Below the pieces are notes generated by a model. That model worked only from the letters and a program-made list of their open reading frames with translations. It was not told where the DNA came from and made no database searches. DNA of 63,846 nt, filler included, from Reclinomonas americana ATCC 50394 (taxonomy: Eukaryota): NCBI GenBank assembly GCA_048213135.1. It is 6 parts of 4 records of this genome, joined end to end, with 100 filler letters (N's around TTAATTAATTAA, not from the genome) between each part and the next. Parts side by side here need not be neighbours in the genome. Positions count along the whole stretch, not along the records: positions 51,333 to 62,336 come from PS015050.1; 5 more parts are not named here. The stretch is one strand, 5' to 3'. Positions within the stretch are counted from its first letter, which is position 1. Every line of letters starts with the position of its first letter. Made by a program: the position numbers and the translations under genes. Shown one piece after another: positions 1 through 62,436 of the stretch.

Positions 1-888
1 CCGACGGCACCTCCAATGCCCATGCGCAACACCTTGGGTCGGAAGCCCTTGTAGCAGGCGGCCAGGCCCTCCTCGCGCGCAATCAGCACCAACGATTGCA
101 GTGTGTAGCGGTACTTGAGTGGCCCGCCGTTGGTGGCCTCGGGCAGTTGGCTCTGGAAGCGCGACTTGACCACATCAAACGGTGCGTTGAAGCACGTGGC
201 AAACACAGCGCCCAGGAAGCCCGCCACCAGCGTGATGCACAGGGAGCCAAATTTGCTTTCCGCTTGCGGAATGAACTGCATGCAAGGAGTGAGTCGACAA
301 GCAAGTGGCTTTTCGGAGGCAAACACGCACACACACACGCACCTGCTTCACACGATGCATGGTGCCAAAGTAGACGGCATTCCACACGCAGTTGCGCCAG
401 CACGTGGGCCCGAGACCGACAAGCAAGCCGCGCACGCCCTCGCCGCGCAGCGTTTGTCGGAGACAGTCAGTTGGCGTTGTGTAGCGGCCCAGATGCTCCT
501 TGGCCTGCAGACGGACCTTGATGACCTGGAACGGCGTCACCGTCAGCGCCTCAGTGTACCCCGAGGCAATGCCGGCCACGAGAGCCGTCATTGCCGAGTC
601 GCCCCACGAAGGCAGCGCCGCCAGTCGTGAACGCGTCATCTCGTACGTGGCATACATGACGCTGCTCTTCGGCACCATGCCCGCCAGCTCAGGCAACAGA
701 CCGCGGTACAGACGCGGAACACCGCCCTCCTGCAGCAGCAGGCGGATCGATTGCAACACACTGGGGTTGCTCTGCGCGTTCAGCTGATGCCGCGTCTTCA
801 CCATGTCAAACGGCTGCACAGAGAGGGCCTCGGCCACTCCCGCCACTGCACCGGCGATCGACAGCGCACTGGCCTCACTCAGCGGCAT
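1..888 (-). CDS. Mitochondrial carrier family protein, 2-oxodicarboxylate carrier (ODC/SLC25A21)-like; 3' end runs off the window
   Basis: ATG at 888. Three carrier signature repeats: PFDMVKTR, PFQVIKVR, PFDVVKSR. Also EGGVPRLYRGL and EEGLAACYKGF. A GT-AG intron at 276-342 restores the frame. Confidence 0.9.
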
Positions 889-1852
889 GGTTNNNNNNNN
901 NNNNNNNNNNNNNNNNNNNNNNNNNNNNNNNNNNNNNNNNNNNNNNNNNNNNNNNNNNNNNNNNNNNNNNNNNNNNNNNNNNNNNNNNNNNNNNNNNNNN
1001 NNNNNNNNNNNNNNNNNNNNNNNNNNNNNNNNNNNNNNNNNNNNNNNNNNNNNNNNNNNNNNNNNNNNNNNNNNNNNNNNNNNNNNNNNNNNNNNNNNNN
1101 NNNNNNNNNNNNNNNNNNNNNNNNNNNNNNNNNNNNNNNNNNNNNNNNNNNNNNNNNNNNNNNNNNNNNNNNNNNNNNNNNNNNNNNNNNNNNNNNNNNN
1201 NNNNNNNNNNNNNNNNNNNNNNNNNNNNNNNNNNNNNNNNNNNNNNNNNNNNNNNNNNNNNNNNNNNNNNNNNNNNNNNNNNNNNNNNNNNNNNNNNNNN
1301 NNNNNNNNNNNNNNNNNNNNNNNNNNNNNNNNNNNNNNNNNNNNNNNNNNNNNNNNNNNNNNNNNNNNNNNNNNNNNNNNNNNNNNNNNNNNNNNNNNNN
1401 NNNNNNNNNNNNNNNNNNNNNNNNNNNNNNNNNNNNNNNNNNNNNNNNNNNNNNNNNNNNNNNNNNNNNNNNNNNNNNNNNNNNNNNNNNNNNNNNNNNN
1501 NNNNNNNNNNNNNNNNNNNNNNNNNNNNNNNNNNNNNNNNNNNNNNNNNNNNNNNNNNNNNNNNNNNNNNNNNNNNNNNNNNNNNNNNNNNNNNNNNNNN
1601 NNNNNNNNNNNNNNNNNNNNNNNNNNNNNNNNNNNNNNNNNNNNNNNNNNNNNNNNNNNNNNNNNNNNNNNNNNNNNNNNNNNNNNNNNNNNNNNNNNNN
1701 NNNNNNNNNNNNNNNNNNNNNNNNNNNNNNNNNNNNNNNNNNNNNNNNNNNNNNNNNNNNNNNNNNNNNNNNNNNNNNNNNNNNNNNNNNNNNNNGCGCG
1801 TGTGTGAACAGACAGAGAGGGCGCGCGAGTGCACACTCATTGTCTCGTTGCA

Positions 1853-7062: not shown

Positions 7063-8798
7063 ATGGTGGTGAATGAAGAGAGTTTAAGGAACACCGTCCT
7101 GTGTCGTTTCACACGTCTAGTCGGCGCCGCCGTGATTGCTGCGACAATGGCCATGTTGTACTCGCCCGCATGGCAGCCAGTGTCACTGTTCATGGTCAAC
7201 TATGCCGGCAGTGTGGTCTTCACTGGACTCGTGGGATTTGTGCTGCTGCGCTGCTTGCATGCAATGGCTGCAACTGTCGCCTCGCCTCCCACGCGAAATG
7301 ACGAGCCGCTTAGCGTGCTCGCAGTGTGGCGCATGGGTGGAGGAGAGAAAACACTGCGTTCTGGTGCATTCGCCATCTTTGTGGCCACGGGTGCGCTGAT
7401 TGCTGTGTGGCCACACGCAATCATCCGCTTGTTTGACATTGATCATGCCGTGTCGCTGCTCTACAATGGCATCATGTACACGTTTGCGCTGTTGAAGGTG
7501 CTGGAGTTGTGTGTTGGCGCGCTGCCGATGCGCCTCACGTGGCCACCGCCGTCGGAGCAGAGCAGTGGTAGTTCGGCGCAGCCTGCACCACTCTTGCCAT
7601 CGTCATCATCCTCATCATCATCGACGACCAGCTTCAAGCTCGTTTCGAAACTGAGACCACCGACTGCGTCGGCGACGCCCACAGCCGCGTACCTGGCAAG
7701 GCAGCGCCCCGCACCCCGCATGCTCCCGTTCGTGGTGTACTACATCAGTATCATCGAGCCGCAGTTCCATCCACAGGATCGCAGCAAGGCACTGCGACCG
7801 GCGCCTCTCTCCTTGCTTTTCCGCAAGCTCGGTCTGTGCGTCCTCAAGGGCACCGCCAGTGTGTTCCTCATGTCAGTGGCGAGGCCGACGCACTACAACC
7901 CGTTCAACTGGTGGATTCTCAACAATACATTTCAGGTTTGGTGGCGTCACAATCACGAAGCACTCTGTGCAATGTGAGGAGTTGCTGAGGCGCGCACTTG
8001 TGTGTTGGCGAGAACAGGGCACCATCGTCTACTTTATGCTGTCCATGGTGATGGACATGGCGTCGGTGATCATGATTGGCATGACGTTTACACCCATGGA
8101 CTGCATGCGCAATCCGCTGCTGATGTCGACGTCGCCAGTGGACTTTTGGAGTCGTCGCTGGAATCTCATGGTGCACGGTGGGTTGTACACGTGCTCGCTC
8201 TCTCGTTACGCCCCCACATCGCCTGTTGCGTGCTTATGTGTGGTGGTGAATCGGCAGGCATGCTGAAGCGACTCGTGTTCGTGCCCGCTGTGCAATCCAC
8301 GTGGTTGCAGCGACTGGTGCCGTCGTCGGAGGGCGCGCGTCGTGTGCTGGCTGGCCTGCTGACGTTTTTGTGCAGTGCACTGATGCATGAGTACAGTTGC
8401 GTGGCGCCGCAGTTGATGCACACGTGAGGATTGGCGATGCTGACAAAACATCATTGTACGTAGTGTGGCAGATCGTGCTGTGGCGCTGCACCGAGTGCCG
8501 CTTCGGGCGTGTCGGCCTGTTCTTCCTGTTGCAGGGTGCATTCTGTTGCACACAGGGCATACTGAGCGCCATCGGCAACCACGGCAACAGCGTGCTGTCT
8601 CGTGCCATTCGCCGCTTTCAAGCGCTTCCTCCTCCACTCCGACGCCTGCTCGGCACGCTGACCACTGCTGCCCTGATTGCACCCACCGTGCACCTTTTTA
8701 CGGGTGACTTGATCCGTGGCGGAGTTCTCGATGGGTTCGCAGCGGTGCTACCGAGGTTAGAGTGGGTCAGTCTGGCCACGAGCGTCGTGAAGGAGTGA
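7063..8798 (+). CDS. MBOAT family membrane O-acyltransferase (wax synthase/MBOAT_2-like)
   Basis: Multiple hydrophobic segments. Motifs MRNPLLMSTSPVDFWSRRWNL, TFLCSALMHEY (catalytic His) and FFLLQG. Three introns. The start could alternatively be 7147. Confidence 0.88.
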
Positions 8799-16200: not shown

Positions 16201-16299
16201 CTGCGGAGATTACACGAAGCAAGTGTCAACAATTCTGCACCGTTTGGGAAAGGGANNNNNNNNNNNNNNNNNNNNNNNNNNNNNNNNNNNNNNNNNNNN

Positions 16300-16311
16300 T
16301 TAATTAATTAA
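16300..16311. other. Artificial scaffold-joining spacer TTAATTAATTAA, also at 27749-27760, 43592-43603, 51277-51288 and 62381-62392
   Basis: Identical 12-mer with stops in all six frames, flanked by about 44 N on each side, at five places. Confidence 0.95.
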
Positions 16312-16355
16312 NNNNNNNNNNNNNNNNNNNNNNNNNNNNNNNNNNNNNNNNNNNN

Positions 16356-27344: not shown

Positions 27345-27808
27345 GTGTGTGTCTGTGTGTGTGTCGTGTGTCCATTTTGTGTGTGTAGCTTTTCTGCATA
27401 TTTTTCCCCCCTTGTTAAGCCGTGGCGGCGGTCACCGGGATTGTGTGACTGCTGCCATTGTGCACGTGTGTGTGATTTCGAAAAGAACTCTTCTGTCTCC
27501 TGAGAAGGAGACGGAGAGGATAAGTGCTGTTGTATGTAGCGTACCGACTAGTGTGTGTGTGTGTGTGAGTGTCTGTCGTATAGTGAAACAAAAAGAAGAG
27601 TCCAACAATTGCCTTCATGTTAATGACTCGATGTGCACCTCAAACATGTTGTTGGAGATGGTGAGGTTCCACCAGATGTGATTGGCGCTGAAGCGACGAT
27701 TGAGNNNNNNNNNNNNNNNNNNNNNNNNNNNNNNNNNNNNNNNNNNNNTTAATTAATTAANNNNNNNNNNNNNNNNNNNNNNNNNNNNNNNNNNNNNNNN
27801 NNNNACAG

Positions 27809-38115: not shown

Positions 38116-40796
38116 ATGAGTGTGCGCGCGTATGTGTGTGCGTTGCCCTCAATCTTCAATTCCATGTGCCTCACTCTCCGCTTCCTCTCTCTCTCTTCCT
38201 CTCTTTCTCTCTCTTGCTCTCTCTCTACACACAGTTGTACGGCGACATTCTGTCGGAGCCCGTGGACGCCATTGTTGCGGTGATTACGGGACCGTCGTAT
38301 TCACTGGCCAACTGCACCATTGCGGATCTGGTGGATCGTGTGGGCTCGAGTGTGCTGGTGCGCGTCTATGTGTGTCTGTCTGCGCCTTTGATCCATCTTG
38401 ACTGATGCGGGTGGCGCGCAGGCGGAGTTCATGCGCAAGTTGTCACAACAGCAGGTCACCACCGGCAGCGTGTTCCACATCTCCGGCGGCGGCCAGCTCT
38501 CGGTGCCGTACATTATCTGTGCTCTGTACGACGGGCGACATGAGGGGCTCGACATGAGCAGTGCGGTGAAGTTGACGGTGCAGCGTGTCATTGAGACCGC
38601 TGACGAGCTCGGCTGCAGCAGCATTGCGTTTGCGAACTTGCACAAGGGTGCGCATGTGTGTCTGGAGAGAGGGCATAGACGTGTGCTGGACTTTGTGAAA
38701 CTCAAAAAGTTGCTGGTCTCGCAGGCTTCTTCCCTGCGCAAGCGTTCTTGCAGGCGGCGCTCCCGGTGCTGCAGCAGGCAGCGGATATGGTCGAATCCAA
38801 CAGCACTTCGGTGCAAGACTTTCGATTCGTCGAGCCGGTGCTCGCCAGTGGTGCCGAGCAGGGTCTGGTCGAGATCATCATGGTCCGGTTTGCGGACGAG
38901 GTTTGTTGAGCGCTGGTAATGGGCGACTCGGGAAGATGGAAGCAGTTTCGATTCATTTTCCGCCCGTCTCCACAGCTCTCTCGCACGCCAGGGTACAAGC
39001 CGCTGGTCGGCGACATTAGCCAGATCGTGAAGCAACCGTCGGCACCGGTCAAGGCTGCCGAGGCGCCTCCAGTCGACCCACGCACGTGCTACGCATCACA
39101 TGTGCGTCTGGCACCGGTGCCGCCCTCTCGTGCTCACGGCGGCGAAGGCAGCATTACCTTTATCGACAAGGGTGCGTATTCATTCTTGCGTGTCTTTTCT
39201 TTTTCTCTTCCCCTACTCACTCCGACTGGCAGGCGACGGCACGCAAATGGTGGCCAGAGCCACAGTTGCACAGCTGATTGAGCATCTCACACAGCACAAT
39301 GCGCACTGTTGCGTCGCGCTCCCCCATTTTGTCTGTCCTCGGTGACCATGCTTACTTGTTGCGTGCAGCCATGTTCACGTTCAGCTTCCTGCTGACCTTC
39401 CGTTCGTTCATGTCGCCGGCCGAACTGGCTGACCGTCTCATCGAGGTGTTCAATCTGATGCCGCCGAGTCTGGAGCCCAAGGAGTTTGCGATGTTCAAGA
39501 AGAACACCCTCGACAGGGTCCGCCTGCGGTCAGTCGTGCATGGCCCTCTCTCGCAGTGTGACGACCACTCTCACGTGCTGCTGCCAGGGTTATCAATGTG
39601 CTGCGCAAGTGGCTGCGCGATTCGCGGCGCGACTTTGAGGATGAGTCGCTGCTGGAGCGCATTCGTGTGTTTGTGAGAGACGAAGTGGCGTTTGTGTACG
39701 GCCCGGCGGCGATGCTGACCACGCAACTGAATGGCGAACTCGACGCATTCGTCCAGTGGCGTGAGGAACAGCGCTTGTCACAACAATCTATCCTGCCCGC
39801 CATTCAAGTGATGCCGGCAAATGCCACGCTCGACGACAAGATTGCCATTGTCTGCAACGACAACATACTCGACAAGTGGGACTCGACGCAGATTGCACAG
39901 CAGGTGAGATCCGTGCGGGAGGGAAATGGTAATGTGAAGGGAGAGTGGAGCTCTGACATCATCATGTGTGCGCAGATTACACTGTTGGTGTTTGACCTGT
40001 TCCAGCGCGTCGAATCGTACGAGTGCGTCGACCGGTACTGGAACATCGAGGGCAAGAAGCACTTGGCACCCAACATTTGCCGCGCCACGGAGCAATTCAA
40101 TCGTTTCTGCAACTGGGTGTCGTCGACGATTGTCACGCAAACGGATCTCAAGAAGCGAAAGAAGTACCTGAAGACCATCATTGAGATCGCAGAGGTATGT
40201 CGTGGTGTCGCCACGCAGAGGCATGGTGTGGTGCTGATGCTCGCTCGCTGCCAGAAATGTCGCACGTACAACAACTTTGAGACGGTGGTCGCGGTGGTGG
40301 GAGCCCTCGGCTCGGCCTCTGTGCGCCGCCTGACCAAGACGTTCGAGCAGCTGTCGAGGAGTGCGCAGGCGCTGTACAACTCGCACATGCGCCTCTTCCC
40401 GGAGAACAAGAACATGAAGGCTTTGCGCGATGCGGTGCGCTCGTCGCAGGGTCCATGCGTGCCCTACCTGGGCCGCTTCCTTACCGACATTATCCTCGCC
40501 GACGCCGGCAACCGCGACAAGGACGATGACCGTCGCATCAACTTCCGCAAGTGCACCATTATCGCCGAGGTCAGTGTTTCCTCTTGGGAAAGTTGTGATG
40601 CCTCCCGTCCTCCATTGCTCACTACGTCGTCGACTTTGCGCAGGCCATTCGCGACATGCAACTGTACCAGCAGTTCCCGTACTCGTTTGCGCGCAACGAG
40701 GAGATACAGAGGCGTCTCGTGTCGCTGCCGTCGCTGAGCGAGGACGAGATGTTTGAGTTGTCGCTGCGGGTCCAACCACGACAACCAAGCCGGTGA
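37555..40796 (+). CDS. Macro domain - REM - CDC25-type RasGEF fusion protein; about 12 introns
   Basis: Macro motifs LYGDILSEPVDAIV, GQLSVPYIICA and GCSSIAF. REM motifs ATVAQLIEHLT and FLLTFRSFMSP. CDC25 motifs IAQQITL, APNI..FNRFCNWV, NNFETVVAVVGALGS and PCVPYLGRFLTD..GNRD..INFRKC. Confidence 0.88.
38052..38114 (+). repeat. (GT)n microsatellite within an intron
   Basis: About 30 uninterrupted GT units directly after a GTGAGT donor. Confidence 0.95.
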
Positions 40797-43547: not shown

Positions 43548-43985
43548 NNNNNNNNNNNNNNNNNNNNNNNNNNNNNNNNNNNNNNNNNNNNTTAATTAAT
43601 TAANNNNNNNNNNNNNNNNNNNNNNNNNNNNNNNNNNNNNNNNNNNNTCTTCTTCTCTCTCTCCTTGTCGTCCTCTCTCTCTCTCTCTCTCTCTCTTTCT
43701 TGTTCTTGACTCGAGGCTCGTTCTCTCCGTTCACTGCACAATCGTTCCTCCCGTTGTCTGTGTGCTCGTCTGCCTTCTTCCGAGTCTTGCTGCCCGTTCC
43801 CTTGTGCCTCCTCTCTTTCTCACCTCCCTTGTCTGTGCGCTCTCTTGTTCTTATCTGCCCTTATTGCTTGACCTGTGTCGTTCTGCCTGCCTCGTTGTGC
43901 CTTGCTCTCCCTCGCCCTCCCCTGTTCTTCGCCTCTCTCTTTGTCCCCTGCTGCGCCTCACATCTCCACCCTCCCTCCCTCTCAG

Positions 43986-48198: not shown

Positions 48199-51100
48199 CT
48201 AATGTCTCACATGCACGAAGATATTGCATCGCAACCTTTCCACTGGGCACGCCTCGCCGCTGCGACCAAACACAATCGGGTCCTTCACAACAGTCGGCTT
48301 GAACATGACCGGCTGTTTGCGCAACGGGCGACTGGCACGGCCCTCCTCCGCTTCGACCGGAGCCGCCGGCGCCATCTCCTGCTCGCGCGCGTGCTGCAAC
48401 TGCACCTCGGCCACCACGGCAGCCGCCTCCAGCGACCACATGCGCAGGGAGCTGTCGGTGCCGCCACACAACACAGAGCGACCGTCTGGCGTGACGGCGA
48501 GCGCCGAGACGCGGCCAAATGTCGACACGTCAAAGTGGCACACCTCCATGTCGGTCTGCAGACTCCACACACTCAGCGACTGCGAATCACCGCCGACCAC
48601 CACGAATCGTCCGTCAGGCGGCGTGATGGCCAAGGCACGCACACGCATGGTCGGCGGCAGCATAAGGCACTTGACCTCCCGACCGGACTCCAGATGCCAC
48701 ACACGGAGGGTCTTGTCCCCACCGCCACTGACTGCGTGCACACCGTCGGGCGTGCAAACCACGGCCCCGACCCACTCGGTGTGACCCGTCAGCACCTTGC
48801 TGCTCGTCACAGATGGCTTGTCCACGCAAAAGTCCCACACACGCACGGTGCGGTCCCAACTGCAGCTCACAATGCACGAGTTCTTCGGGCCGACAGCTAC
48901 GCCGCTCACGGAGAGCGAGTGGCTCGTCATGGTGGACACCAGGGCTCCCGCTTCATGCAAATCCCACAGTCGAACGGTGCAGTCGGCGGCGCCAGTCACC
49001 GCGTAGCGCCCGTCGGCACTCACCGCGACCGTCGTCACGTCGTTCTCGTGTCCACTCAACTCGCACTCGGCCGCGCCCCGTGCCACATTCCACACGTCCA
49101 CTTGCCGATGCTTGCTGACGCTCAGAAGGCGCTGGCCATCGGGCGTCACGGCTAGCGCTCGAACAGGGCGCGTTCCGGTCGAGAGGTGCGCGACTGCACG
49201 ACGCGTGCTCAACGACCACGCAATCAGCAGGCCGTCATCGCCGCCACTGACTGCATGCAGTCCGTCAGGCATGGCCACCGTCGCTCGCACCGCCTTGCGA
49301 TGCCCGACCAGCCTCTTGGTGGACAGTGTGGTTGTCTCGACAAACAGTGGAGGAAGATGCAAAGCAGAAGCCGCCGCATCAAACACAGCAGTCGACGCAC
49401 TACCAGCTGCTGCTGACCCACTGTCGTGTCTTTCGCGAGTTGCCACCGTTGTAGCAGCAGCTGCGGGCGGAGAAGTGCAGTCGTCTGCTGGCGCAGGCAA
49501 GATCCACACGCGAAGTGTGCGGTCGTTGCCACCGCTAATGGCGCGGAGGCCATCGCTCGTCACCGCCACCGAATACACAGCTCCGGTGTGTCCCGACAGT
49601 CGCGAGACCACCTCGGCTTCGCATTCTGCGACCGGCTCGCCACTGTCGGTGATCGCCGACGAAAACGAGAGGCGCCACAGCAACAGAGTGTCGTCGTCGC
49701 CAGCCGTGAGGAAGCGTCGCGAGTCGGGAGTGAGGCACACACAGTTGACGCCGTTGGTGTGGGGAGCACGCACGCAATGCACCTGTTGTCCGTGGGCCAG
49801 AGACCACACTCGCACGGTGCAGTCTTTGGCGCCGCTGAGGAGGTGCTGCCCGTCGGACGTCACCACCAGGCTCATCACGTTGCCGGTGTGGCCCTCCAGC
49901 ACCCACAACGGTTGCACGGCAGCGTCACCAGAGTCCACGGCCGCGTCGTCAGATTCGTCGACATGTCGGAGAACATGCTCTTGAGCAGCCTGTGTGGGCC
50001 ACGCCCGGATAAGCTTGTCGTCGCCGGCCGAAAGCAGCAGCTTGCCGTCGGGAGTGGCCACCAGGGTTTCGACGCGGCCCTCGTGACTGCGCATGCAACA
50101 GTGCCGTACGGCCTCCGGCTGCGGGACGTCCTCCAGCTGCCCGAACGACAACGAGGAGCGCACGTGACCCAAGTGAGCCGACGGCATGGCCCACATGCGA
50201 ACAGTGCCATCGGCTGCGGCACTGGCCACAAAGCGGTCATTGTCCAGCAAACACAGCGCCGTGACGGGTTGCCGATGGCCGGAGAACACACGAACGGGGC
50301 GCGACGACAAGTGTGACCACAGCACCAGGTAGTTGTCCCAGCCGCCACTGACGAGCAGCCGATTGTCCGCCGTGGCCACAAGCGCCTTGATGCCGTCGAC
50401 GGCGGTCGCATGCATGCGGAAGACCTTGACTTCCTCGCCCGACGGCAGGTACCACACGCGCATGGTGGCGTCGTTGGAACAGGTGGCGAGGAAACGGCCC
50501 GGTAACGTGATAATTCCGTTGACGTTGCGCTCGTGGCCCTCCAGGCGGCGGACCTCTTCGCCGGTGGCAAGCACCCACACTCGAGCCGTTCGGTCCTTGC
50601 TGCCACTGACAATGTGCAGACTATCGGGCGTGATGGTGACGGCTTGCACCTCATCCGTGTGACCCTCGAAACGATGCACGACTTCGCCCGTAGCCAGTGA
50701 CCAGACCCACACCGTGCGGTCGTTGCCGCCACACACCACATGCCGCCCATCCGGTGTCACCGACACGGAGCGCACGGCATGTCTCTCGCCTTTGAGCTCA
50801 ATGTGCGACAAGCCATCGGCGATCGAGTACACGTACACCAAACGATTGCCGCCGCCAAACACCACGTTCCGGCAGTCGGGGGTAAAGGCGACCGACAGCA
50901 CAAAGCGCTTGTCAGCAGTGGGAATTCGGCGCACCACCTCTCCGGTCTCCACTGACCAGATGCACACATGACCGTCACTGCCACCCGAGACCAAATGTTG
51001 CACGTCTGGCGAGAAAGCTGCGCTCGTGACGATGCTCTCATGCGCCACTGCCTGCCATCGCAGGGCTCCATCGAGAAGCTGCCACACGCGGAGCGTCGAA

Positions 51101-51232
51101 TCTCCCGCACCACCACTTGCCACCAGCAGTCCGTCGGCACTCACGGCCACCGCACAAACGCTAAACTGCGGGTGCGCCTGCAACACATGGAGCGTCTCGT
51201 ACGGCGCCACCGTACACCACACGCGGACAGTG
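48199..51232 (-). CDS. Long WD40 repeat array (well over ten repeats) in a single uninterrupted ORF of about 3 kb; 5' end truncated
   Basis: Repeated GH...V..V.VTPDG...SG..D.T.RVW motifs across 1007 aa with no intron needed. Confidence 0.9.
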
Positions 51233-51332
51233 NNNNNNNNNNNNNNNNNNNNNNNNNNNNNNNNNNNNNNNNNNNNTTAATTAATTAANNNNNNNNNNNN
51301 NNNNNNNNNNNNNNNNNNNNNNNNNNNNNNNN

Positions 51333-52052
51333 TCGCGAGTGCTGTCCGATTGTGCGTCGATACAGCTCGCGCGTGTGGGGATTCTTGCACCTGTCGCTGT
51401 TGGAGCACTGTGTGGCGCGTCATCTGTTTGCACTTGCCAGCTGGCGGCGTCGGTTGCGCGAGGATGATGTGCAAGAGCACATTCTGTGCCGTCGGTCGTT
51501 GGCCGATCGGCACTCTCTGGTCTCCCAGATGGCTGAGGAGGTTCGCCGCTCGGCCTCGCTGCAGGAGCGCCTGTGGGAGATGGTCTCCTTCTCTTCGCGG
51601 TCGCCCGGCAACGAGGCACTGTGCATGGCAGCCGCCAACGCGGCCACCATTTTGTGTGCCGCCCAGGTGTCGTTTTCGGGTCGTGATCTCTCCGGTGTGC
51701 AGCTGCGCGGCAGTGACTTGCGTGATGTGGTGATGCATCGTACTGTGTTCCGCGGTGCCGACCTCTGCGAGGCGAATCTGTTCCGAGCGTTTGCTCTCGA
51801 GGCGAATTTCAGTGAGGCCAGTCTCGATTCCGCTCGACTCGCTCGTGTGCCCTACGATGGTCACACCGACGAAGTGATGTCTGTGGCAGCACTTCCGGAT
51901 TCGCAACACTTTGTCACCGGTGGTCGTGACGGCACTGTGCGCTTGTGGCGGCTCACCAGTGAGGACCCTGTGCACATCTACGTGGGACACTCGGCAGCGG
52001 TGCTCTCGGTGGCGGCCAGTCGCTCGATGGTGGTGAGCGGCAGTGACGATAA
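51333..52052 (+). CDS. Fragment encoding pentapeptide repeats followed by WD40 repeats, as in the NACHT-WD40 linker region
   Basis: AAANAATILCAAQVSFSGRDLSGVQLRGSDL..GADLCEANL..ANFSEASL, then GHTDEVMSVA..TGGRDGTVRLW. Confidence 0.85.
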
Positions 52053-58723: not shown

Positions 58724-61264
58724 TCAGGCATCATGGTCCGCATCTGGCAGCTCCGGGTGGAACTTGCGCACCGTTTCCCACATGGCCACTGTGAGCTGCT
58801 GGTTGGTATGGTGACGAGCAGACAGTACTGCGTGCTTACGAACCACGCAAGTCGCGAACGCCCAGCTCGTGAATTGCAGCTTCGAACAAGAACTCTTCAT
58901 CGAGTCCTTCCGGGGGCCGTGCGGGTTGCTTTTTTTACAGCAGATGGCAGTGCACGGTGAGAGAGTGAAGGCTCCCACGACGCAGCAACTTGTCACACGC
59001 AACATCGTGCACGTCCACCACCAGCTGTCGGATGGGGTTGAAATAGGCATGGTCCAGCACCTCTTCCAGCGAGCACCGGTCATCCGGGATGAACTGCCAA
59101 CAGGTGAGCATGTATGGCCGGTGATACAGCTTCTCTCTCTGCTCTCACGCCTCTCACCTTGAGAATTTTTCCGATCAGGTCCAGTGCTGTTGGAGAACGT
59201 GAGTGCCACGAACAGGAGAAGCAGCGTGCCGCCGATCATGCACACACCGTCAGCAGGGCAACCAGGCAGCAACTCTGGCCAACCGGGAGGCACGCAGATG
59301 GGTCGGCGGCGGAACCAGCTGCCCATGGCCTCGGCATACTCGCCCTGCGTACTGCCGATGATCCATTCCCTCATCCTCTCATCGAAGCCGACCTTGCGCA
59401 TGATCTCGAGGATTTGGTGGGTCTCTGCATGCAACACGCTGAGCAGGGTGCACACGAGGAGGGAAACCTTGTCCCTCACCTGTTTGGCCGTCCAGCACCG
59501 GTTCGTATACGTCGTAATCTGCAGTCGCAATCGTGCGCGGCTATTGAGACGCACACGACACCTCGCGGGATAAACAAACTGAGAGAAGACAAGGCAAACC
59601 TGTGTCTGGTCTGCGCTGCGCAACGAATGCCACGGTGAGCCAAGTGAGTGGAAGACCATGGAGTGATTGAGAGAGTACTCACAACCAGCTTCTCAAAGTT
59701 GTACATGCGCGCGAGAATGCAGCCTGAAACGGTCAAGTGAGCACGAAGAGATCGTCACACACCGAAAAGAGAAAGAAAAAGACGCACCGTAGCTCCACAA
59801 GTCGAGTGCGGGAAAGAAGGAGAAAAATAGAAAGCAGTGTCAGCAGTTGAGATCATTGCAAGGGAGGGCGCTTGCTAGTCACATATCTCGGTGGTCGTAG
59901 GGCGCTCGCGCAAGAACCTCCGGAGCACCTGTACATGGGTGTGACGATGACATTCTCTGATCGGGCGACAACGCATTGACAACGCAACGGTAGGTCAATG
60001 TTTGTACGAGCGGTGTGTGTTTGTCGCCGGCGCCTGGGTTCTCGAGCATCATGCGTGACAAACCGAGGTCGCACACCTGTCAACCACGTTGAGGAGTGGA
60101 CCAGACGGCGGCACACACCCGTCGTGTTCCGGCTAGCTCACCTTGGCGCCAAGCTTCCCATCATCCCGCGTGAACAGCAGGACATTCTTTGCCGTACTGC
60201 ACACAGCGGCTGGTGAGCGCACCGAGCACATGACAGTGCTTTCCGTGACCAGCAGTCACGCAACAGATCACGGTGGAGAATGTTGGCGTCGCGCAGATAC
60301 TGCAGCGCCTTGGCCATGTCGTACATGATCAGACGCCGGTTTGTCTCGCTGCGATCGTCACTTGCTGGACCAAGGCAGTGAGGACCCATCGAACTGCAGG
60401 CGCGAGCCATCTGAGGTTGAAAGGAGACGACGGTGGTGGTGCACAGGGACGCAACGCCTCCAGTGAACCGCCGTCGACCAGCTCCGTGATAATGTAGACC
60501 TCCTGGAAATCCGCAAAGCGTGGACTTGGCGGTTTGAGGTCGAGCAAGCGCATGATCTGTGAACATTACAAGGGTGAGGCAGTGGCGATGGGTGCGAGAG
60601 TGGAGACCGACGACGCAACATTCGGGTGGAATACACGTGACAACAGTCGAAGCTCACGGAGCAGGCTGCAGAAGCGACATGAGGGCGATGGGGGGCGATG
60701 AGGTGAGGCATGGAAGATGAGTAGCTACCGTTGGACGTAGACTTTGGCACACTGGTGACTGTCGCACATGTCAGCGTCAACACGAGAGACAGGCAGACAT
60801 ACGGAGAGAGACGAAACTCCAAACGAAGAGACACACGCTAGAGGGGTCAAAGCCACATTCGTCAGTGACTATACCAACGCCTGACAGCAGAGAGAAGCCT
60901 CACCTTGACAGCCACCTCCAGCCTGCCATCATGTTCGGAAAAAATGCAAGACAACTGAGCGCCAGGAAAAGTCAGGAGACGAAGGTAGAAAGAGCATCAG
61001 ACCTAGCTCTTCGGCACTGTCCATCTGTGCGTGTGAAGAAGAGTGGTGAGAGAGAGAGACAGGAAGAGATAATGTCAGATGCGATCGTTTCTCATGATCA
61101 TCGATGGTATTCAAGCAAGCAATCGCTGCGTAACACTGCATCGCACGCACCCACAGTCAGTCAACGCAGATGCATCACCACTGGCCACACAACGCAACTG
61201 CTCCGCCACCGAGGAAACCTTCCTCAGTCATGTCGACAACACATTGAGCACCCACTGGCCACTC
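58724..61264 (-). CDS. Atypical CMGC (MAPK/CDK-like) Ser/Thr protein kinase; 5' end in an N gap; about 15 introns including a 1-nt exon and an AT-AC intron
   Basis: Spliced motifs FLGGGAYGQC, EVAVK, RLLRELRLL..HPNIMRLLD, FQEVYIITEL, ILHRDLTAKNVLL, KVCDLGLSR, VQTLTYRAPEV, VDLWSYGCI, ALDLIGKILKFIPDDR..LDHAYF, and a MAPK-like tail FLFE..KFHPE. Confidence 0.9.
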
Positions 61265-61695
61265 CTGCACACACGCAACCAACGAGTCAGGCGAACGAAG
61301 GAGGGAGAGGAGAGGAGANNNNNNNNNNNNNNNNNNNNNNNNNNNNNNNNNNNNNNNNNNNNNNNNNNNNNNNNNNNNNNNNNNNNNNNNNNNNNNNNNN
61401 NNNNNNNNNNNNNNNNNNNNNNNNNNNNNNNNNNNNNNNNNNNNNNNNNNNNNNNNNNNNNNNNNNNNNNNNNNNNNNNNNNNNNNNNNNNNNNNNNNNN
61501 NNNNNNNNNNNNNNNNNNNNNNNNNNNNNNNNNNNNNNNNNNNNNNNNNNNNNNNNNNNNNNNNNNNNNNNNNNNNNNNNNNNNNNNNNGAAGATGGAGA
61601 GAAGACCGCACCTGCTGAGCCATGTTGACAACGAAGGACGCAACTCGCGAGTCATTGTCTTGCTTACTTACTTGCGTGCGACACGGAGAGAGAGG

Positions 61696-62336: not shown

Positions 62337-62436
62337 NNNNNNNNNNNNNNNNNNNNNNNNNNNNNNNNNNNNNNNNNNNNTTAATTAATTAANNNNNNNN
62401 NNNNNNNNNNNNNNNNNNNNNNNNNNNNNNNNNNNN

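Follow-up and report, generated by a model that had tools for sequence, protein, structure and literature searches.

Can an exon consist of a single nucleotide? The question is raised by a mitogen-activated protein kinase (MAPK)-like gene of Reclinomonas americana ATCC 50394 (GenBank assembly GCA_048213135.1), in which the two halves of the glycine-rich loop are encoded on the minus strand on either side of a 63-nucleotide (nt) intron, a lone T at position 61135, and a 110-nt intron. The gene lies in a joined stretch of DNA of 63,846 nt, referred to here as the window, and all positions are counted along it. A preliminary description of this DNA proposed that the T is an exon that completes the loop. 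Reading frame and protein motif indicate that the T is probably a constitutive one-base exon (a probability of about 0.6 is assigned to this reading), and the mature mRNA would then carry it. This is the best explanation of the locus: only the one-base exon allows the canonical loop to be formed, chance would seldom produce such an arrangement, and the flanking introns are like the others of the gene. The preliminary description had, however, overlooked in-frame alternatives, chiefly a single intron from 61198 to 60955.

Structure of the locus

The exon, the 63-nt intron, the T, the 110-nt intron, and the next exon were all found with the coordinates and motifs first ascribed to them (Table 1). 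Read 5' to 3' on the minus strand, the exon that ends at 61199 is followed by the 63-nt intron 1, the lone T, the 110-nt intron 2, and a 22-nt exon. The first of these exons (61264-61199) is preceded by an acceptor at 61265, beyond which the upstream sequence disappears into a run of N (61319-61589), and its open frame closes on the residues FLGGGA in phase 0. Positions 61140-61128 read TGCAG-T-GTTACGC, that is, an acceptor AG, one base, and a donor GT. Intron 1 has a branch-like motif, TTGACTGAC, 24-25 nt upstream of its TGCAG acceptor (the motif can also be read as TGACTGAC). In intron 2, CTGAC lies at -50 and CTCAC at about -22 relative to CACAG, and the pyrimidine tract is free of AG from the branch motifs to the acceptor. 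Each of the flanking introns carries its own donor, branch-like motif, and acceptor, and the lengths of both are normal for the gene. The 22-nt exon begins with ATGGACAG; when the T is included, the codon is TAT and the loop becomes GxGxYG. The junction sequence around the T contains no homopolymer.

Table 1. Features of the kinase locus and of the remainder of the window
Feature	Positions	Strand	Basis or remark
MAPK-like kinase gene, 20 exons and 19 introns as modelled	58729..61264	-	frame and motif reading
Exon, first half of glycine-rich loop	61199..61264	-	sole open frame of three, within stop-free 20-exon model
Intron 1, 63 nt	61136..61198	-	GTTGCGT donor, TGCAG acceptor
Candidate one-base exon T, first base of TAT (Tyr) codon	61135..61135	-	suggested by frame and motif
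Intron 2, 110 nt	61025..61134	-	GTTACGC donor, CACAG acceptor
22-nt exon, remainder of Tyr codon, third loop Gly, start of strand beta-2	61003..61024	-	frame and motif model, path enumeration
Intron 3 of the one-base-exon model, 80 nt, weak GTCTGA donor	60923..61002	-	gene model
32 nt, exonic only with the single intron 61198-60955	60923..60954	-	path enumeration
19-nt exon, VAVK catalytic-lysine motif, fixed downstream anchor of every model	60904..60922	-	gene model
Mitochondrial carrier	178-891	-	
RasGEF domain	39562-40734	+	sole database match Pelomyxa schiedti RasGEF, 23% identity
Uninterrupted 1025-residue WD40-repeat frame	48202-51276	-	
Pentapeptide repeats, then WD40 frame	51334-52050	+	
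Linkers	16256-16355, 27705-27804, 43548-43647, 51233-51332, 62337-62436		

The 20-exon model of the kinase translates without a stop and ends in a MAP-kinase-like C-terminus. Protein kinases are recognised by the motifs of the Hanks subdomains (the Gly-rich loop, VAxK, HRDxxxxN, DxG, APE, and DxWSxG), and the spliced model contains VAVK, HRDL..KN, DLG, APE, and DLWS in the expected order. Two of its motifs are conditional: the glycine-rich loop requires the one-base exon, and DLWS is read only with an AT-AC intron farther downstream. Individual exons rather than the spliced protein were used as database queries. Exon 60267-60392 matched the Pfam Pkinase family (PF00069) at 17.1 bits (E 0.0037), below the gathering cut-off of 31.7, and six further exons gave no kinase match in Pfam. 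The best PDB matches of the same exon were MAPK6 (E 0.0048) and MAPK4, with E values ranging from 0.0048 to 0.1; a PDB search with the stretch 59882-60076 was empty.

Introns are extremely dense in this gene, interrupting the coding sequence about once every 60 nt, and six of its exons, at 1, 22, 19, 23, 18, and 16 nt, are no longer than 23 nt. Since so many of the exons are tiny, a one-base exon would be the tail of the gene's own exon-size distribution. The 16 introns used as a reference (the three under test were left out) range from 55 to 152 nt around a median of 64 nt, and 14 of the 16 fall within 55-81 nt. Exactly 63 nt is the modal length, shared by three introns of the gene including intron 1, whose G/T-rich ...TGCAG acceptor resembles those of introns 8 and 15.

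Splice paths and chance expectation

All GT-AG paths from the first exon of Table 1 to the VAVK exon were enumerated, with introns of 40-260 nt and at most four introns per path. GxGxxG occurs in only 5 of the 3087 paths that are in frame and free of stops. Three of these 5 place an aromatic residue before the third Gly, and because all three include both introns 61198-61136 and 61134-61025, and hence the T, the base at 61135 is the sole route to a canonical glycine-rich loop.

How often such a route arises by chance was estimated by permuting the interior of the region with dinucleotides preserved and re-enumerating the paths from donor 61198. An in-frame, stop-free path with the aromatic-Gly pair appeared in 7 of 400 and in 35 of 1500 shuffles; when all introns had to be at least 55 nt the count was 24 of 1500, and when all had to be 55-120 nt it was 11 of 1500. 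A one-intron in-frame path, of the type represented by intron 61198-60955, appeared in 629 of 1500. Given 629 as against 11-35 of 1500 shuffles, the existence of a single-intron path is unremarkable and that of the one-base route is unusual; the likelihood ratio in favour of the latter is roughly 18-60. The arrangement was also counted as a pattern (a strong donor, 45-130 nt, YAG, k bases, and a strong donor) on both strands of the window. There were 33 matches over k = 0-12, and k = 1 was found once, at the 61135 site. The arrangement exceeds chance.

Evidence against the one-base exon and alternative readings

Several observations weigh against a one-base exon. Skipping the T had been said to shift the reading frame, which is correct for acceptor 61025 but not in general: three canonical in-frame GT-AG routes (the single intron to 60955, acceptor 61017, and donor 61188) bypass the base, which is required for the canonical loop. 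Within the 152-nt intron of the same gene, an AG-C-GT look-alike at 60839-60835 would be out of frame as a 1-nt exon, so the bare AG-N-GT pattern does occur without function. The acceptor at 61136 scores only -2.1 on a position-weight matrix, with 74 of 109 decoy AGs as high, yet 3 of 16 true acceptors score no higher. Intron 3 (61002-60923) has the weakest donor in the gene (leave-one-out score 0.4), and it has to skip the acceptor ending at 60955 that it contains (CTGAC, 17 nt, CAG). The distance from the Tyr to the catalytic Lys is 14 residues with the one-base exon and 17 with the single intron; in MAP kinases this distance is about 19 residues. Codon-usage log-odds, from a test partly trained on the kinase gene itself, do not separate the two models (-0.14 per codon for the 1 + 22 nt versus +0.01 for the 32 nt exonic with the single intron). 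Finally, word-index protein searches with a 58-residue exon and a 42-residue exon found no orthologue.

The scores themselves discriminate little. The position-weight matrices were trained on 16 introns, separated true sites poorly from decoys, and were not used to decide; on this scale donor 61134 scores 4.96 (15 of 181 decoy GTs are as high, and 10 of the 16 true donors are lower), donor 61198 scores 3.9, and acceptor 61025 scores 4.65, with 8 of the 16 true acceptors lower. The scores at both introns flanking the T fall among those of true sites, with donor 61134 and acceptor 61025 near the middle. Codon-usage values range from -0.33 to +0.9 for exons (17 of 19 positive) and from -1.0 to +0.18, mostly negative, for the 19 introns read in three frames. 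A variant third intron, 60980-60916, is disfavoured at -0.82 per codon. When a 65-residue read-through served as the query of a full HMMER search, no orthologue was recognised, and each of the four matches consisted of several short stretches. The single 18-residue match from a scan of metagenome contigs (locus L001) was rejected as spurious; it had been picked by the search pattern itself, and the contig is otherwise dissimilar.

With one ordinary intron of 244 nt, 61198-60955 (GTTGCGT...CTGAC...CAG), the T, both short introns, and the 22-nt exon would all be intronic, and the loop would read GxGxxS with Leu in place of the aromatic residue. Such an intron is GT-AG, in frame, and stop-free; the 60955 acceptor, which has a pyrimidine run in addition to its consensus CTGAC, need not be skipped; the catalytic Lys lies at a typical distance from the loop (beta2-beta3); and a Ser at the third glycine position is also found in CK2. 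The frequency of such paths in shuffled sequence nevertheless gives their mere existence little weight beside the rarity of the aromatic-Gly path. At 3.8 times the median, this intron would be longer than every one of the 16 reference introns, and the complete, typical intron of 63 nt with which it begins would have to be ignored. The 32 nt that it adds to the coding sequence are T-rich like intronic pyrimidine tracts (39% T; the figure is 20% for exons and 28% for introns); purines predominate in the 22-nt exon, which has 14% T, and base composition is a weak hint in favour of the one-base exon. The loop would also be without the aromatic residue and the third Gly in a kinase whose other catalytic motifs are all canonical. 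A PDB search with the contiguous reading 60865-60957 was empty, which says little either way. On balance a single intron is unlikely here, and if it is nevertheless correct, the finding is ordinary.

Still less probable is that the internal AG-T-GT is coincidental, and that a single 174-nt intron, 61198-61025, is accompanied by a frameshift that is either an assembly error in which one base close to the exon edge was lost or the mark of a young pseudogene. The window consists of draft sequence from six contigs and has many runs of N, AG-N-GT look-alikes do occur, and the kinase gene needs a second unusual splice, the AT-AC intron, to keep DLWS. Every other exon is open, however, and all kinase motifs are present; the lesion would have had to hit the exon edge exactly, at a junction that is not homopolymeric, and chance would have had to supply exactly a T between flanks of typical length that bear splicing signals, an arrangement seen at one site in the window and in 11 of 1500 shuffles. 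The AT-AC pair, for its part, takes two coordinated changes and is not a product of decay. Least probable of all are two other canonical choices of splice site, each GT-AG, in frame, and stop-free, and each leaving the complete 63-nt intron unused. The first exon could be 10 nt longer, up to the GTGGCC donor 61188, and be joined by a 164-nt intron to 61025, which would keep the Tyr codon and insert three residues in the loop; this would disrupt the GxGxxG spacing and pass over the strong GTTGCGT donor in favour of one with a score of 2.2 (65 of 181 decoy GTs are as high, and only 3 of 16 true donors are lower). Alternatively, an intron from 61198 to the tandem acceptor 61017 would delete the residues Tyr-Gly-Gln, at the cost of the third Gly and the beta-2 strand.

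The GTTGCGT donor class

The donor of intron 1, GTTGCGT, lacks the usual G at intron position 5 and is used by 6 of the 19 introns of the kinase gene; the reading frame in the other five confirms that the cut precedes the first G. On both strands of the window there are 48 GTTGCGT sites, as against 15.7 +/- 4.3 expected, and none of 100 shuffles reached 48. Introns that start with GTTGCGT and contain CTGAC have lengths that cluster at 59-69 nt in several genes of the window. In the preliminary description both donors flanking the T were placed in a "shifted" class; shifted or bulged pairing with U1 is known from the work of Roca and Krainer. This placement suits GTTGCGT but fits GTTACGC less well, the latter being a rarer variant with 4 sites in the window; the one other copy examined, at 8205, is intron-internal and is not a donor. 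The donor preference of Mastigamoeba balamuthi, as stated in the available text of a preprint (bioRxiv 10.1101/2022.06.08.495308), is GUGCGC, unlike GTTGCGT.

At 61638-61655 on the minus strand, just upstream of the N run at 61319-61589, an ATG is followed 11 nt on by another GTTGCGT donor. This may be the first exon of the kinase gene, and the N run perhaps hides more of its exons. A check for an introner or repeat origin found no relatives of introns 1 and 2 elsewhere in the window, and this origin was rejected: the introns of the gene share low-complexity similarity only, and their best pair reached a score of 26, as compared with at most 24 after shuffling.

Other possible unusual splicing in the kinase gene

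The DLWS motif (subdomain IX) is kept only with an AT-AC intron, 59886-59806 on the minus strand (alternatively 59884-59801). None of three in-frame paths limited to GT-AG introns retains the motif (the best of them uses a 5-nt exon, 59792-59788), whereas four paths do so when AT-AC is allowed. U12-type AT-AC introns are characterised by a donor of the ATATCCTT type and, close to the 3' end, a TCCTTAAC branch site. The candidate intron 59886-59806 begins with ATATGTGAC and ends with CGCAC; its donor departs from the U12 consensus, the U12 branch motif is absent from it, and a CTGAC lies 37 nt upstream. If real, it would be a U2-type AT-AC intron.

The 152-nt intron 60903-60752, also on the minus strand, can be split into a complete 66-nt intron (GTGAGG...CACTGAC...CTAG) and an 83-nt intron. 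Between the two halves is CGT (60837-60835), a possible in-frame 3-nt exon that would add an Arg after the catalytic Lys. The 1-nt look-alike at 60839-60835 is the same spot, which also reads AG-C-GTGTGT.

A broader proposal, speculative and doubtful at present, is that this lineage practises strict intron definition around the over-represented GTTGCGT donor and tolerates exons of any length, so that one kinase gene could combine exons of 1 nt and possibly 3 nt with a U2-type AT-AC intron. Were this true, the "long" introns of the genome would often consist of two normal introns on either side of an ultra-short exon, and the organism would offer a natural system for obligatorily ordered splicing at overlapping sites.

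Remainder of the window

The window has a G+C content of about 60%. It is a composite rather than a single natural molecule, made of six contigs with five linkers of the form N44-TTAATTAATTAA-N44 between them, and it contains seven additional runs of N, of 20-903 bases. Rfam and tRNA scans of the window were empty. Other features identified in it are listed in Table 1.

Proposed splicing mechanism

In the pre-mRNA, two short introns, 63 and 110 nt in length, would each be defined independently and stand one nucleotide apart. With both removed, the exon ending at 61199 would be followed by the T, and the T by the exon that starts at 61024, creating the TAT codon and with it an ATP-binding loop of the canonical form GxGxYG. 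The intron 1 acceptor and the intron 2 donor would overlap within the footprint of one spliceosome, and because of this overlap the introns are most likely removed sequentially, by intron definition; simultaneous assembly on the overlapping sites is unlikely. Either order of removal appears workable on paper, as each would leave the signals of the other intron whole. If intron 1 were removed first, the donor of intron 2 would remain intact and be preceded by ...GCAT; if intron 2 were removed first, the acceptor of intron 1 would remain intact and be followed by TATGG. Sequential removal of the two introns is inferred from sequence, and the obligatory order that the preliminary description raised as a possibility would be an inference as well.

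If the one-base exon is real, it adds a further natural example from a lineage unrelated to the plant and fungal cases, located in a very well-understood protein motif, and it offers a compact substrate for studying how two spliceosomes share one nucleotide and in which order they act. Models of this kind cannot be yielded by gene finders; in intron-dense genomes the gene is broken or the long-intron reading is chosen, and the protein is mis-stated.

Comparison with known systems

Two splicing reactions that occur at nearly one place, and are forced into sequence, are also characteristic of recursive splice sites and of fungal stwintrons. At a recursive splice site the ratchet point is AG/GT and no base is kept, whereas in the kinase gene one base is kept; with the T at 61135 standing between AG and GT, a zero-length recursive site was rejected on anatomy. 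A stwintron has an inner intron that splits one of the signals of the outer one. The two introns of the kinase gene are both fully signalled, each with its own complete donor and acceptor, and either could be removed first; a stwintron was rejected on these grounds.

Arabidopsis, Fusarium, and Coprinopsis already provide examples of one-base exons, and such exons are less rare in print than the preliminary description, which held that they are reported only very rarely, had allowed (13 are recorded in Coprinopsis). In Arabidopsis thaliana, the available text on APC11 describes a single-nucleotide exon, A333, established by cDNA sequencing together with substitution and deletion constructs (Guo and Liu 2015, PMC4674806). 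As in the kinase gene, one base lies between AG and GT inside an interval annotated as a single intron, and in APC11 that base is required for the reading frame; its authors propose intron definition with removal of one intron after the other, the same model as is proposed here. According to the same text, proof in APC11 is at the RNA level, whereas the kinase case is known from its DNA; the flanks there are long (the base is 333 nt into a 422-nt interval) as compared with 63 and 110 nt; and the identity of the base is irrelevant to splicing there, whereas here the T is needed for the Tyr codon.

The one-nucleotide exon of Fusarium CYP621A is supported, in the accessible part of the report, by 20 orthologues, an intronless relative, and SRA reads (Nelson and Syed 2026, PMC12940212). 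As described there, an "intron" of more than twice the median length contains an internal AG-N-GT whose base completes a codon in a conserved motif, in an organism with short introns, and in all these respects it is like the kinase gene. It differs in having support from orthologues and reads, and in that the base is the middle one of a Gly codon rather than the first of a Tyr codon. In Coprinopsis cinerea, a long-read annotation lists, in the portion available, 13 exons of 1 nt, 57 of 2 nt, and 27 of 3 nt (PMC12230235). This genome, like that of R. americana at the kinase locus, is presented as intron-rich, with short introns and ultra-short exons; unlike the genome-wide catalogue of full-length transcripts compiled for it, the case described here concerns a single gene with a different preferred donor, GTTGCGT.

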